From NCBI GenBank assembly GCA_019057635.1, contig DXJL01000104.1, forward strand, positions 32,001 to 96,000: DNA of 64,000 nucleotides, written 5' to 3'. Shown here piece by piece: positions 1 through 17,442 of this stretch. A program made the translations under genes and the position numbers. How positions within the stretch are numbered: the stretch's first letter is position 1; each line of letters starts with the position of its first letter. The notes beneath the pieces were generated by a model. That model had not been told where the DNA came from and searched no databases. It saw nothing but the letters and a program-made list of their open reading frames with translations. Source of the stretch: Candidatus Heimdallarchaeota archaeon. GTDB lineage: Archaea > Asgardarchaeota > Heimdallarchaeia > Hodarchaeales > Hodarchaeaceae.

Positions 1-1198
1 GGATTACTTGGCTGCTGTTAATATACCGCTGCAGGATATTACAGGCAGCATTATAATCAGCATTCAGGTGATGACCACATTTACGACAACAGAAGCATCC
101 GCGCGATTTCCGGTTACGTTTGTCTACATAGCCACACTGACTACATTGTTGGGAGGTATACGCCTCATTTACGCGCACTACCGTCATCCCCACAAGTTTC
201 GCTTTATACTCGAGCATTTTAATAAATTTGAAGAAGGGGATTTGAACAAAAGACTGATTGGTACGTTTTCCTAAGTTACAGTGGTGTTTCCACCTGGCAT
301 TGTAACCGATGACCAATGTCTCGATATTGTGCTGTAAACAGTAAGTAATAATTCGGCGGGAGGTTTGATGGAAGAAATTCTGAAGGCGGTTCATCCGCAC
401 TCGCTGAAGACCTTGAATCCGGCGAGTGGTAAACTGTTGATTGTGAGTGGTTGCTAGCGATCGATAATGGGCCAGTTGTTTGTTATACCACTGATTAATG
501 GTCTTCCCCACCCCGCCTTTGACGAGTAAGCCGTCTGACGTAGTTACGAGGTTGTTAAGACCAAGATCTATTCCCATAGCTCGGGGAGAAGACGAATCAG
601 AGGAGGGAAAAGGGAGAACTTGCACTTCATAGAGTAATTCTACCACAAATCGATCATAATACGGTACCAATCGAGCGCCCACACACGTTTCTACAGTTAA
701 TGGAAGGGTTCCGAGTGAAAAAGTGGGAAAGCCGCGTGCCATGAGATTCCGAGCAAAAAGAATCTGGTTCTCCCGAATTCGAACGCGGGGGCGGGGAAAG
801 TTCAGCATGTGCAGCCCATTCTTGGGTTTATACCTGGGCGCTCGGGGCCGGGTCTGAAATTTGGTCGGATCGGTTTTCCATGCTTTCAGTCCATTGAAAA
901 AGCTCCGCCAAATTTGTTCTACTTGACGGAGGACTTGTTGCGGTAAATAACTATCCGAAATGTCCTTTAATGCGAGATACACTGGTTCGTGCTTGAGGCG
1001 ATGATACAAGCTCGTGTATTGGAGCCATTTCCCCGTCTTAAAGAATTCTTGGCGCACCTCATAGGTGGCGCGATTATACAGATTTTTGGCACAGGTGCAC
1101 AAATCGGTAAAAATGGGCCGCGGTTTCATCTGCATTCGGATAGCTAACTGGGGGTGAGAGTGTTTCGTGGTACGCATTCCCATTCCAAGAAGACTCAT
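1..1198 (-). CDS. tnpB: TnpB RNA-guided endonuclease (IS200/IS605 family); 3' end runs off the window
   Basis: Manual translation of the minus strand gives an uninterrupted frame from ATG 1198 (alternatives 1183, 1177): ...CAKNLYNRATYEVRQ...PQQVLRQVEQIWRSFF...RPRAPRYKPK...AMGIDLGLNNL (RuvC-I)...LVIGYNARWK...FVQIPF...LEYKAKLVG...VNEAYTSQQCSQCG...FCCRKCGHHLNADYNAACNIL (Zn finger, RuvC-III). No stop inside the window, which explains why the ORF track missed it. Confidence 0.95.
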   Translation of the reverse strand, partial: MSLLGMGMRTTKHSHPQLAIRMQMKPRPIFTDLCTCAKNLYNRATYEVRQEFFKTGKWLQYTSLYHRLKHEPVYLALKDISDSYLPQQVLRQVEQIWRSFFNGLKAWKTDPTKFQTRPRAPRYKPKNGLHMLNFPRPRVRIRENQILFARNLMARGFPTFSLGTLPLTVETCVGARLVPYYDRFVVELLYEVQVLPFPSSDSSSPRAMGIDLGLNNLVTTSDGLLVKGGVGKTINQWYNKQLAHYRSLATTHNQQFTTRRIQGLQRVRMNRLQNFFHQTSRRIITYCLQHNIETLVIGYNARWKHHCNLGKRTNQSFVQIPFFKFIKMLEYKAKLVGMTVVRVNEAYTSQQCSQCGYVDKRNRKSRGCFCCRKCGHHLNADYNAACNILQRYINSSQVI

Positions 1199-1234
1199 TC
1201 GCTCTTATAAGCTCGAGACAGAGAGAGATCAGTG
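1..1234 (-). mobile_element. IS200/IS605-family element carrying tnpB with no adjacent upstream tnpA (IS1341-like); left end near 1227-1234
   Basis: Visibly more GC-rich than the flanks. The upstream sequence CACTGATCTCTCTCTGTCTCGAGCTTATAAGAGC (minus strand) has a related copy at 17053-17086. No tnpA ORF in 1200-1500. Confidence 0.75.
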
Positions 1235-1498
1235 AAAATAACAAATGTGACGAAAATGAACCTTTTTTCTTCCTGGCTTAGAATAATAAATACTGGTTGT
1301 CAGACAAATTTGATCATGTTTATATCCTGTATTCGAAAAAATCTTCATGATATTAGCTTTACTTTCGCCATGTCGTACAAAAATGATCTCCAGTTCATAG
1401 CCACCTTTTTAAATCAATAACTGTCCTTATGCCTGTGATGCTATTAAATTATGTTGATGTAGTAATTCATAATTTCAATTTTCCAATAATTCTTACTG

Positions 1499-2910
1499 TT
1501 ACGTCTCTCTAGTTGAAGAATAAGATGCCATCAGGTCTAGTATTTTAACAGCAGTATTGATATCATCATAAACAACTCCACCATTGGACCGAATCTGAGA
1601 AGTCCATCGAGATTTTATGGAATTATCTCCCACTATATAAGTGATAATTGGTTTCCTATATTTTTGCATATCATGTAAAACGGTGGGATCAAATGTGATG
1701 GCAACCTGCATCGCCGCAATCATCAACAAATCATGTCAATTTCATTACTTTCACATAGAATGGGTATAATTCGACGGAGAGCTTCATCTAATCCATGAAT
1801 TTCAAAAGCAGACCATGAATCAACAGGGTTCTTTGGAGGCATCCATTCTGGGAAGAGCTTTTGTAATTTTTGTGTTGTCGATTCTGAGAACTCAGGTATT
1901 TTTATATTATATTTCGCTGCGATATCTGCCCCAATAACACCTCCTGCACCAGTTATAGTTACGATTGCAAGACGATTCCCATTAGGGAGCGGTAATTTAG
2001 CAAAGGCCTCTACAATATTAAAAAAGTCTCCAAATTCAGTCGCTTGTATAATTTTTGATTGTTTTAGTAGATCTGATAATAATTGAGGGGAACCATGGGC
2101 AGTACTAGATGTGTGGCTTAGTGCAGCTGATCTACCTACTTCTGATTGACCTCCAAGTAAACAAATCAGAGGTTTAGACTGTGTAAACTCTTTAGCAAGT
2201 TTTAAAAATTTACGTGGCCGTTTCAAACCTTCAAGATAAAATGCTGCAACTTTTGTTTCTTCATCCTTTAGGAAATCTTGGAGCAAATCACATTCATCAA
2301 TATCTATCCTATTCCCAATAGATGCAGCTTTACGGATACCGGTGTAACGTTCTGTGAATAATTGTAATATAACTGCTCCAGAAAAATACCCTGATTGACC
2401 TACGATTGAAACAACTCCTTTTCTCCTCATATCTGCAGTAATTGGCTCGAAAGTCGTGATTAACTCGTCTGTTACTGTTCCCATACAATTTCCTCCCCAG
2501 ATGCGTATGTTTAATTGCTTTCCAAGTTTACCTATTTCCTCTTGTATGGCTTTTCCTTCCTTACCCGCTTCAGCAAACCCAGCACTTTCAATAATTATAC
2601 CTTTCACACCTTTTTGGTGACATTCTTTCAATAGAGAGGGTATACTTTTGGGCGCAACAAAACATATTACCAAATTAATGTTTTCTGGGACTTCCATTAG
2701 GGAATGATAAACTTTCAATCCTAGTATTTCTTTTGCCTTAGGATTAATTGGAAAAATTTGTTCTGTCCTAGAAAATGTCCAAAGAACATTCTTTAAAATG
2801 CCATAACCCGCTTTAGAACTATTTCGACTAACACCAATGATTGCTATCGATTCTGGGTGAAAAAAGCATGAGAGATCAGGTTGCATAGGATTTCCTCTTC
2901 GATCAATCAT
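1499..2910 (-). pseudogene. ADP-forming acyl-CoA synthetase alpha subunit (CoA-binding domain), split by a 1-nt frameshift near 1729
   Basis: Motifs SIAIIGVS, PINPK, GFAEAG, WGGNCMG, GQSG, SIGN, GAGGVIGAD and KNPVD. ATG ATT TGT TGA versus the other frame TTG TTG ATG ATT GCG: one extra T joins the 395-aa and 76-aa ORFs. Could be a sequencing error. Confidence 0.8.
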
Positions 2911-15617: not shown

Positions 15618-17021
15618 TCAATCAGAGGTGGGTATGTTGGCAACAACTCGTCCATCATGTTTTAAGTCGATTAGATCACGCTGATGTAACGGCTTAAGCT
15701 GGTTTTCTAAAACGATTGGATCCATACCAACACTTTTGGCTAAGGCATCTAAGCTCATTTCCCCATTCATTCTAATAAGGATTGTAATCGGTGCATAGTT
15801 AGAAAGGGATAGAACTTGTTCAATATAATCATTAATATTTCTAACTCTGTTCAAAGTTTGAGTTGTGATCTTTGTTAGCTTTATTTCTGATTCACGATCC
15901 CTAGCTTCTTCTAATTCTGCGTTTACTTTATCTATTTCTATTTTATAATCTGTTAAATTTTTGGATATATTGTCATTTAGCTCTACGAGCTCCGTTATCT
16001 GTACATCCATTTGTGTTGCGTTATTTTCAAGTGAAGCATTTCTTGCAGATAATTCTGTAATTTGAGTATGCAATTCTTTCGAGATATCAGCTTTCTTTGT
16101 TTGAGCTTCTACCAGTTTAGCTTGTAGTTCTTCTATTTCCGCCTGGAATTGTTTGGTGTTATCTCTTAAGCGCGTTTTAGCTGATTCTTCATATTCTTGT
16201 TTAACTTTAGTTAATGAGATCTGGAACTGCTCGTTTTTAAATTTGTATTTTTCTTGTTGCTCTTGTATTAGCTTCTGATATTCTTCCTGTTGTTCAGAAT
16301 ATGCACTGGCCCAAGTTTCCATTGCTTCCGATGCTTGAGAATCCGTAAGAGAGTTTAATCGGGAAATTTCAGCAGTTTTGTCAATTAATTCCATCTGTAA
16401 GGAGGCATTTTTCTCTTCTAGCGTAACGAAATTTTCACCTTTATTATCTAACTTACTTGTTTTTTCACTCAATTCGTTTACAGTTTCTTCCAGTTGAAAT
16501 GATAAATCTTCATTTTTGGTTTTCTCTTCGATTATAAGATTCTGCATTTCTTTTTGATAACTGTCGAATTTTGACTCAATTTCAGCATACTCTTTCTCTT
16601 TCATCTTTAATTGTTCTTGCAAGGATTCATTTATATGATTCAATCGGGACAGATCATTAGTTTGATTTTTTAGCCTTTCTCGGTCGTATTTGGTAAATTT
16701 TTCGTTTGCACCTGTGTCATCGAACGTAACATCTTGGATTAACATATTTTTTATCCAATTAAATGAAGACATTGTAATACGTGTTAATTGGCTCTCGATA
16801 GACCTATTAACATCATCATCAAGTGATTTCAACAATGAATCAACATATACTCGATCTTCATGTCGTGTGATGATATTCGACCGATTCAGTAGGTCATTTT
16901 TGAATCCACTGAATGACACTCCCAATGTTTGAATTGCTATCTTTCTATCCTTCGCTAAATCCTTAATAAATTCTAACCCATATTTTCGTAATTTGGATTC
17001 ATTCGATTCATCCATGGTCAT
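15618..17021 (-). CDS. Long coiled-coil protein with C-terminal winged helix
   Basis: Long E/K/Q heptad-rich region; C-terminus GEMSLDALAKSVGMDPIVLENQLKPLHQRDLID. Confidence 0.8.
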   Translation of the reverse strand: MTMDESNESKLRKYGLEFIKDLAKDRKIAIQTLGVSFSGFKNDLLNRSNIITRHEDRVYVDSLLKSLDDDVNRSIESQLTRITMSSFNWIKNMLIQDVTFDDTGANEKFTKYDRERLKNQTNDLSRLNHINESLQEQLKMKEKEYAEIESKFDSYQKEMQNLIIEEKTKNEDLSFQLEETVNELSEKTSKLDNKGENFVTLEEKNASLQMELIDKTAEISRLNSLTDSQASEAMETWASAYSEQQEEYQKLIQEQQEKYKFKNEQFQISLTKVKQEYEESAKTRLRDNTKQFQAEIEELQAKLVEAQTKKADISKELHTQITELSARNASLENNATQMDVQITELVELNDNISKNLTDYKIEIDKVNAELEEARDRESEIKLTKITTQTLNRVRNINDYIEQVLSLSNYAPITILIRMNGEMSLDALAKSVGMDPIVLENQLKPLHQRDLIDLKHDGRVVANIPTSD

Positions 17022-17052
17022 TTTTGTCCGACAAAGTGATTTTCTTCATATT

Positions 17053-17375
17053 CGCTGACCTCTCTCTCTCACAACCTTAAAAGGTCTCCCTCCCTCACAT
17101 CTTCAACCTTGAGGTGATGAAAAAAATACTTCCTTAGCTCCAAGGTCATAATCTCTTGTAACTTCGTTAGACGAGTTACCCGTCAAAGGCAAGAGAGCAT
17201 TGCCCCAAATATGTTGAAAATTATTGATGTTGTGGATGTCAAAACTAGATGTGTTTCAAGTAGTCCCAACGGAAAGCATACATTCTCTTGTTGCTAACCT
17301 GCCGGATAGTAGATGTGTGACTCATCCAGTCCATAACTATTTTTCTAAATAGTTGTCTGACAAATTTAGTCATGA
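17053..17375 (+). mobile_element. Non-autonomous, internally deleted derivative of the tnpB element (MITE-like or omega-RNA-only unit)
   Basis: 17053-17086 matches the reverse complement of 1201-1234 at 25/34 nt. 17158-17190 matches the reverse complement of 515-547 at 28/33 nt. 17257-17266 matches the reverse complement of 1-10 at 9/10 nt and continues as QVVP...PDSRCVTHPV. Hairpin at 17333-17356. The right boundary is uncertain. Confidence 0.8.
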
Positions 17376-17442
17376 GACTTTTATGTAGAAACTGCAGCAA
17401 AAATATTCGCTAACAGATTGGTGATCCTGCAAATATTTTTAA

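Follow-up and report, generated by a model that had tools for sequence, protein, structure and literature searches.

The 64,000-nucleotide (nt) stretch of DNA analyzed here (the window, C72:32001-96000) comes from a Candidatus Heimdallarchaeota assembly (G000; 3.19 Mb in 214 contigs, 36% G+C, 91.6% complete). It holds two related insertions: a tnpB-bearing insertion sequence at its very start and, some way downstream, a miniature element of 362 bp at 17013-17374 (+), a length that includes the tetranucleotide CATG at both ends. The miniature element, which directly adjoins a divergent coiled-coil gene and belongs to a multi-copy family, is the subject of this report.

The full-length, parent-type element is a tnpB-only insertion sequence of 1,424 bp on the minus strand (C72:31895-33318; window 1..1318), and its last 105 nt, with the right end, fall to the left of the window. 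It begins CATGATCAAATTTGTCTGACAAC and finishes GTTGTCTGACAAATTTAGTCATG, with 22-bp inverted ends around the palindrome TTGTCNGACAA. Its tnpB open reading frame (ORF) encodes 429 amino acids (aa). Matches to PF07282 (1e-23) and PF01385 (7e-18) identify the protein encoded at 2-1198 (minus strand), where the window begins, as a TnpB. The parent TnpB also matches solved TnpB and Cas12f chains, among them ISDra2 TnpB (PDB 8exa/8bf8/8h1j; E 6e-10, residues 82-401). Its closest relatives (71-95% identity) are found in Candidatus Heimdallarchaeota and Candidatus Hodarchaeota metagenome-assembled genome (MAG) records, and the next-best relatives are bacterial, with 36% identity or less.

Pairwise BLAST aligned the miniature element with the full element in three collinear segments. 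Positions 29-71 match 74-115 of the full element, which comprise the CT tract and TATA-like box (77% over 43 nt, E 7e-5); positions 143-178 match 769-804, adjoining RuvC-I (83% over 36 nt, E 4e-6); and positions 245-362 match 1309-1424, the tnpB 3' end together with the right end (79% over 118 nt, E 3e-24). About 1,062 of the 1,424 bp of the parent are absent. The miniature element is therefore an internal-deletion derivative of the 1.42-kb tnpB-only element with 22-bp inverted ends. A first-pass annotation, made from the letters of the window, had proposed just this: three collinear tnpB matches, the loss of roughly 1 kb, and retention of the promoter end and the omega-RNA end. All three matches are present and above chance and, together with the shared inverted ends, they bear the proposal out. 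The 3' match had been quoted as 9 of 10 nt; it is real but far longer than that, and it was underestimated because the parent continues for 105 nt beyond the left edge of the window, where its right end is found. Comparison with the sequence on that side shows that 17257-17374 matches the true tnpB 3' end, a similarity whose absence would have refuted the proposal. On the other hand, the element had been placed at 17053-17375, about 30 nt upstream of the coiled-coil gene. Its left inverted end, CATGGTCATTTTTGTCCGACAA, was missed, and the element in fact abuts the start codon of that gene: the CAT at 17013-17015 is the coiled-coil ATG (minus strand, 17015-17013). The edges given here rest on two alignments, one of 19 copies from the genome together with the DNA flanking them and one of 41 copies from five genomes. 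DNA contigs of three runs break at 17013 and at 17374/17375, which is consistent with these edges.

Read along the plus strand, the element opens with the left-side CATG (17013..17016), the target tetranucleotide, which is present once in an empty allele and twice in an occupied one. The left inverted end (17017..17035) follows; it contains the palindrome TTTGTCCGACAAA (17023-17035) and matches the right end in inverted orientation. A CT tract (17059-17070) and a TATA-like box, CTTAAAAG (17076-17083), make up a region (17059..17083) homologous to that upstream of tnpB. Judged from its sequence, this region is a candidate archaeal promoter pointing inward. Its counterpart in the full elements, just 5' of the tnpB start, is CTTATAAGAG, and CTTAAAA is nearly invariant in the alignment of 41 copies. 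An attempt to derive a promoter consensus from tRNA upstream regions was abandoned, since the 14 tRNAs called showed no clear box. The Shine-Dalgarno-like motif with ATG, GAGGTGATGA (17111..17120), is also nearly invariant among the 41 miniature copies; by eye, it is followed by only 6-14 codons, which are not conserved. The next feature, which we call module 1 (17152..17196), derives from the RuvC-I region of tnpB and consists of an outer helix, TCTCTTG/CAAGAGA, around the block TAACTTCGTTAGACGAGTTACCCGTCAAAGG (17159-17189). A variable spacer (17197..17256) then gives no BLAST match to the full element and has no conserved fold (mean z of single-sequence folds -0.17 in 40 sequences of these 60 nt).

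The 3' part begins with a conserved box, CAAGTAGTCCC (17257-17267), and hairpin A (~17271-17303), a unit (17257..17303) whose position is kept while its sequence varies. Hairpin B (17304..17332; GGATAG.GGATG-loop-CATCCTGTCC) is nearly invariant in the family, and hairpin C (17333..17357; ATAACTATTT/AAATAGTTGT) shows the strongest covariation. The first-pass annotation had picked out GGATAGTAGATGTGTGACTCATCCAGT (17304-17330) and a 10-bp hairpin (17334-17357) here, and both are present as quoted. The element closes with the right inverted end TTGTCTGACAAATTTAGTCATG (17353..17374), which in full elements holds the TGA stop codon of tnpB. The adjoining AGACTTTTATGTAGAAACTG (17375..17394) is a candidate guide flank by position only, if the system is TnpB omega-RNA-like. 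The element has no protein-coding capacity: its longest frame is 51 aa, and a 42-aa frame (17224-17352) is a remnant of the TnpB C-terminus that is not kept in a second subfamily.

The element is one of many. BLAST of G000 returned 18 matches that cover 350 or more of the 363 query positions. Of these, two, at the start of C133 and in C182, have common flanks, which leaves 17 distinct full-length loci, in addition to one 5'-truncated copy. The miniature copies form two subfamilies, ~80% and ~66% identical to the window copy. Across 22 genomes of the genus, the pattern of the ends was counted 62 times in G000, 67 times in G002, and 25 times in G020, compared to 0 for the reversed control. Full or partial matches to the element occur in 7 of the 21 other genomes of the genus, and weakly in 1 of 19 genomes of other genera. 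In G002, at least five copies are 97.5-99.2% identical while their flanks are unrelated, so movement there was recent.

An empty allele was found for one copy in G000. The empty site at C199 (~6724) reads AATACATGATGTATAG, and the occupied allele at C194:472-833 reads AATACATG[358 bp + CATG]ATGTATCG, the inserted part being ATCA...AGTCATG. The flanks of the two alleles are 94% identical, and the presence of both in one MAG suggests strain heterogeneity or a paralogous segment. At the window locus, G002 has an orthologous copy while the element is absent from G020, G004, and G018. A second candidate empty site, in G020 for the C82 copy, was set aside as too diverged to align.

The target site is asymmetric. 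Of 71 distinct left flanks, 53 have CATG and 15 have TATG as the tetranucleotide. Only 2 of the 71 have a T immediately before the left CATG (~23 expected; p 1.6e-9), while the right end is always TCATG. The first base of the right flank is A in 38 of 70 cases and C in 4 of 70. Because the flanks differ when read outward, the element must insert in a fixed orientation relative to an asymmetric site (consensus A-CATG-A), and variants at one end are never mirrored at the opposite end (0 of 12 variant copies). Targeting thus appears to be like that of the IS200/IS605 family, a likeness favored by both the flank asymmetry and the unmirrored variants. The single CATG of the empty site and the CATG at both edges of the occupied one fit no duplication and a 4-bp duplication alike. 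As the element's own end is T-CATG, a 5-nt motif V-CATG would permit cutting of empty sites while sparing occupied ones, and we suppose that the two are told apart in this way. Insertion at start codons was considered as a rule and rejected: an outward ATG opens a long ORF at 6 of 63 ends, compared to 11.1% of all CATG.

The right-end flanks, where a guide would lie, all differ among the 41 right ends in G000, save for one duplicated locus. The 16-nt flank of the C194 copy matches the empty allele beside ACATG with one mismatch. Apart from this empty allele, a search for guide targets elsewhere gave near-matches (2 or fewer mismatches in 16) at chance level only.

The last ~120 nt of the element fold into the three hairpins, and covariation supports this fold. 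In the alignment of 41 copies (A1), 96.6% of cells pair, compared to 89.3 +/- 0.6% in shuffled alignments. Double-change cells number 67 compared to 24, and the covariation score of 0.220 compares to 0.106 for the shuffles (0 of 500 reach it) and to 0.05-0.09 with slid partners. A covariance model built from 28 modules, an approach also put forward in the first-pass annotation, finds 41 modules in G000, every one of them at a right end. A model-based alignment (A3) of 67 modules, 64 of them distinct, was then taken from miniature and full-length elements and solo ends. In this alignment, which was fitted to the model and leans towards it, 92.4% of cells pair compared to 80.7%, double changes occur in 16 of 26 pairs, including all 8 of hairpin A, and covariation is 0.313 compared to 0.119 (0 of 500 shuffles). 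At least five versions of the hairpin A stem fold at the same place. Double changes are found in 5 of the 8 pairs of hairpin C in A1 and in 7 of 8 in A3 (for example, AU 28 times and CG 28 times). In hairpin B a U-G wobble is conserved in 62 of the 64 distinct sequences. Conserved wobbles are mismatches on the other strand, and the fold is therefore placed on the tnpB-sense strand. A single-sequence fold of 290 nt (z -2.54) differs in structure from the family consensus and was not used.

Module 1 is the other conserved part. Its block at 17159-17189 is almost invariant and is kept by every miniature copy; in the full element the block lies at ~753-806 (window ~513-566, minus strand), and it is invariant there, synonymous sites included, in 13 of 13 full-length copies. 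The module 1 helix (158-166/196-204 in A1 numbering) is 96.9% paired, with double changes in 3 of 8 pairs, and the closing helix covaries between subfamilies (CCCTTG/CAAGAG compared to CCCTCG/CGAGGG). We compared 13 full-length elements, which are as low as 67% identical overall. Third-codon-position conservation is 0.88-0.97 within this block and ~0.55-0.75 elsewhere, and the only other peak is the scaffold. Third-position conservation and a covarying helix together indicate a functional element at the nucleic-acid level, superimposed on the coding sequence. Pairings are possible between the module 1 loop and the right-end palindrome (9 bp), between module 1 and the hairpin B loop (7 bp), and between the hairpin B loop and the last 7 nt (7 bp); all columns of these long-range pairings are invariant, and hence they give no covariation signal.

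A nuclease is available to the family. Of six full-length copies examined, three have an intact tnpB (429, 423, and 421 aa; D/E/D motifs read by eye). Family-level tnpB (at least 66% identity) is present in G000, G002, G004, G018, and G013, while G020 has fragments only. Hairpin B and the right end are identical between full-length and miniature copies, and TnpB made by the former is probably compatible with the latter. Hairpin B followed by the right end, belonging to the C35-type sister tnpB subfamily, appears in a 203-nt contig of RNA run X9 (record 26, matching window 17298-17331). The genes flanking the miniature element have no coverage in that run, to which no weight is attached.

In contrast to the nuclease, a dedicated mobilizing enzyme did not come to light. 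Y1 TnpA (PF01797) has no match in G000, which is 91.6% complete, and among the 22 genomes of the genus it occurs in two, both times in unrelated IS605 elements without these ends. The two serine recombinases of G000 belong to IS607-like pairs, in which the recombinase is followed by a tnpB ~40% identical to that of the family (C54:5867-7419 and C56:27316-29189), and neither pair has the family inverted ends. The search for Cas1 gave only a sub-threshold match of 17.8 bits at a contig end. [quoted passage not shown] These ends are carried by tnpB-only 1.42-kb elements only (11 named-MAG loci, G000/G002). Long end pairs in G002 were considered as a possible larger element and rejected, since one encloses an ORF of the host, another is a derivative of 146 bp, and others are solo ends.

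Two further arrangements in G002 may be recorded here. At L149 (G002:C8:61600-64800), an ORF for an 840-aa membrane protein starts within a solo element end, which encodes its first residues, MSDKFDH. At L151 (G002:C57:96043-96188), a micro-derivative of 146 bp has the left end and TATA region joined directly to hairpin C and the right end, without module 1 and hairpins A and B.

The window copy itself scores 135.7 bits with the scaffold model, the 12th highest of 41; its two ends, its TATA box, and its module 1 are all undamaged. The closest other copies in G000 are only ~80% identical to it in the 5' part. Compared to its orthologue in G002 (L140, G002:C34), the first 255 nt are 96.1% identical and the last ~110 nt only 61-67%; the switch comes directly after the box CAAGTAGTCCC, and 44 nt of the G002 flank are absent from the window. 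The switch and the lost flank point to recombination between copies, through which the 3' module and the putative guide of one lineage were replaced.

The coiled-coil gene (15618-17015) is under purifying selection, with a ratio of nonsynonymous to synonymous substitution rates (dN/dS) of 0.20 over 366 codons. An effect of the element on its promoter had been suggested in the first-pass annotation. This was an understatement: the element sits on the start codon and has displaced all the former upstream DNA. Compared to G002, a tract of low divergence (16696-17250; 13 mismatches in 555 nt) extends from the element into this gene, the rest of which is ~10% diverged. As the tract also spans coding sequence, selection and recombination are indistinguishable, and we do not claim selection. 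Another intergenic stretch is 82% identical to G002, and a second orthologous pair of elements, with 87.4% identity in the 5' part, displays no such conservation. The metatranscriptome library with the C35-type 3' end also contains a 196-nt contig equal to 17072-17267 with one difference; the library is strandless and DNA carry-over is possible. The contig halts where the sequence becomes repeated among copies. Near the other insertion, at 1499-2910 (minus strand) and ~180 nt away from where the full tnpB element has its left end, lie overlapping frames of 76 aa and 395 aa that are CoA (coenzyme A)-binding/succinyl-CoA-ligase-like; a frameshift or the truncation of a gene may account for the two frames.

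We consider that the miniature element is probably a mobile, stand-alone omega-RNA cassette, non-autonomous in the manner of MITEs and of palindrome-associated transposable elements (PATEs), which borrows TnpB from intact copies. We would put the probability of this reading at about 60%. The family has retained four parts of its parent: the 22-bp inverted ends on either side, the promoter-like TATA region, a structured block from within tnpB, and the ~120-nt 3' segment that serves as the omega-RNA scaffold of TnpB elements. Transcription would start at the left-end promoter and run through the scaffold into the flank. TnpB from intact full-length copies elsewhere would bind this RNA, and the flank would serve as the guide for the matching empty site beside CATG. 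After excision, the empty site would be cut and the element restored by recombination. Such homing or retention has been demonstrated for bacterial IS605 elements. The idea of a stand-alone guide-RNA gene was thus right in that the promoter and omega-RNA ends are kept, but what they belong to is a family of mobile miniature transposons and not a host 'gene'. The other possibility raised in the first-pass annotation, a single copy decaying at random, is ruled out by the 17 loci, the copies in relatives, and the compensatory changes in the hairpins.

Several observations weigh against the cassette. Module 1 is without a place in the known omega-RNA model, and Rfam gave no match at gathering scores in the window and none at E up to 5 on four loci (6,113 bases). 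Runs of five to six T in the scaffold, in the hairpin C loop and, in some subfamilies, in the 3' strand of hairpin A, could terminate transcription before the guide. The RNA contig breaks off at 17267, before it reaches hairpins A-C or the guide. Its start at 17072 lies upstream of the proposed TATA box, and read-through or antisense transcription would account for this no less well. In the window copy, 2 of the 10 hairpin B pairs (319-339 and 322-338 in A1 numbering) are broken by A at 17311 and A at 17326, whereas 37-38 of the 41 copies keep them, and the flank is not the original insertion flank; on these two grounds this copy looks weakened. G005 (74% complete) has one full miniature copy, and no family tnpB was found there with the query used. 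Lastly, sense-strand hairpins with G-T wobbles are also expected of signals for single-stranded-DNA transposition.

This last point leads to the alternative of a plain non-autonomous transposon, whose ends, hairpins, and module 1 would act as DNA signals in cis, probably as single strands, and serve only excision and integration by some transposase, with any transcript incidental. Hairpin C and the palindromes lie where IS200/IS605 elements carry the subterminal hairpins recognized by their transposase (excerpts of PMC3119063), DNA hairpins tolerate G-T wobbles, and target choice is strand-asymmetric, as in single-strand transposition. The 146-bp derivative in G002 retains the left end, hairpin C, and the right end only, and the RNA contig stops short of the scaffold. 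On the other hand, 40-100 nt separate hairpins A and B from the end, and the two occupy exactly that 3' region of tnpB from which omega RNA is known to be made. The sequence of hairpin B is invariant, loop included, as expected of a protein-bound RNA. A promoter-like box is present in all copies, and no Y1 transposase accompanies the family: genomes rich in copies have none, and the 2 of 22 that do have it carry it in unrelated elements. We regard this alternative as unlikely, although it deserves to be kept in mind. Less likely still is that a TnpB-only family spreads without a dedicated transposase. Module 1 and the palindromic ends would then be recognized by the TnpB-omega RNA complex or by a host enzyme, excision and copying would be RNA-guided or host-driven, and V-CATG and T-CATG would form a self/non-self rule. 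This thought arises because the search of 22 genomes yielded no partner bearing these ends, whether Y1, serine recombinase, Cas1, or DDE, and nevertheless near-identical copies at new sites show that the family moved recently; we consider it a long shot.

Two further alternatives concern the window copy in particular, and we judge both to be improbable. The host may have co-opted this copy as the promoter or 5' leader of the coiled-coil gene, mobile and guide roles having become secondary or been lost. In keeping with this, the element abuts the ATG in place of the former upstream DNA, the insertion is shared with G002 next to a gene under constraint, and the first 255 nt are better conserved than the other intergenic stretch. 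An RNA contig that includes the TATA region fits a transcript crossing the element, and hairpin B is damaged. However, the low-divergence tract covers 300 nt of coding sequence, synonymous sites included, and recent recombination explains it equally well. The second orthologous pair lacks comparable conservation, and outward ATGs with long ORFs are not enriched at element ends. The copy may instead have been active once and now be a relic in decay that serves no function. It has the two broken pairs, the fifth position of its left end is a G, a T replaces the G before hairpin C, its flank has lost 44 nt, and its nearest relatives in G000 are distant. Against decay stand its place as 12th of 41 with the scaffold model, its intact ends, TATA box, and module 1, and its presence in the RNA library with one difference in 196 nt.

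If the cassette reading is correct, dozens of promoter-plus-scaffold units aim a few TnpB nucleases at different sites, which would amount to natural guide multiplexing, and the miniature element would be a parasite exploiting the nuclease of another parasite. The system would comprise a compact archaeal TnpB (421-429 aa), a scaffold of ~120 nt, and a candidate CATG-type target motif. It also raises the wider questions of what moves the tnpB-only family and what role is played by a block of tnpB that is under constraint as nucleotide sequence as well as protein.

Among known systems, ISDra2 TnpB belongs to the same protein family. Its omega RNA reportedly overlaps the tnpB 3' end and the right end, the flank is said to act as the guide, and the 4-5 nt motif beside the target is said to be the insertion site. 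The sequence relation is distant, and the scaffold described here has three hairpins and no Rfam match. CATG also ends our element, so that self-avoidance would need a fifth base.

The closest parallels in the literature are cited here from excerpts of the respective papers. PATEs derived from IS1341-type tnpB elements were described in Haloquadratum walsbyi (PMC3119063). As portrayed in the excerpts, they share with our family protein-less core deletions, near-terminal palindromes, multiple copies, a 4-5 nt targeting sequence, and presence/absence polymorphism. They are defined there without inverted terminal repeats, whereas the miniature ends match in inverted orientation over 22 bp, with the palindromes TTGTCNGACAA at both ends, and their hosts have a Y1 transposase partner, of which none was found in G000. 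The same 22-bp match sets our elements apart from the IS1341 group, for which the criterion is 'no terminal inverted repeats'. PATE-like elements of Geobacillus stearothermophilus 'often encode omega RNAs' and need TnpB in trans (excerpts of 10.1101/2023.03.14.532601). In haloarchaea, sense overlapping transcripts (sotRNAs) arise at the 3' end of IS1341-type tnpB genes; going by the excerpted text, they resemble our scaffold as archaeal non-coding RNAs of the tnpB 3' end, and they lie on tnpB-bearing elements (PMC4615843).

Standalone omega RNAs (Altae-Tran et al. 2021, as summarized in the excerpted parts of PMC10691335) act in trans. Like our elements, they are, in that summary, mobilized guide-RNA regions without nuclease or transposase, with effector copies in the same genome and a guide beyond the transposon end. 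They differ in that action in trans was demonstrated for them and would be expected here, and our family has an Asgard host, 22-bp inverted ends, and an extra internal block. Among the titles that a literature search on TnpB transposons in Asgard archaea brought up, none is about this family. The kind of element reported here has thus already been described, in PATEs and in standalone omega RNAs, and our family is a clear but ordinary example of it with a few unexplained traits.

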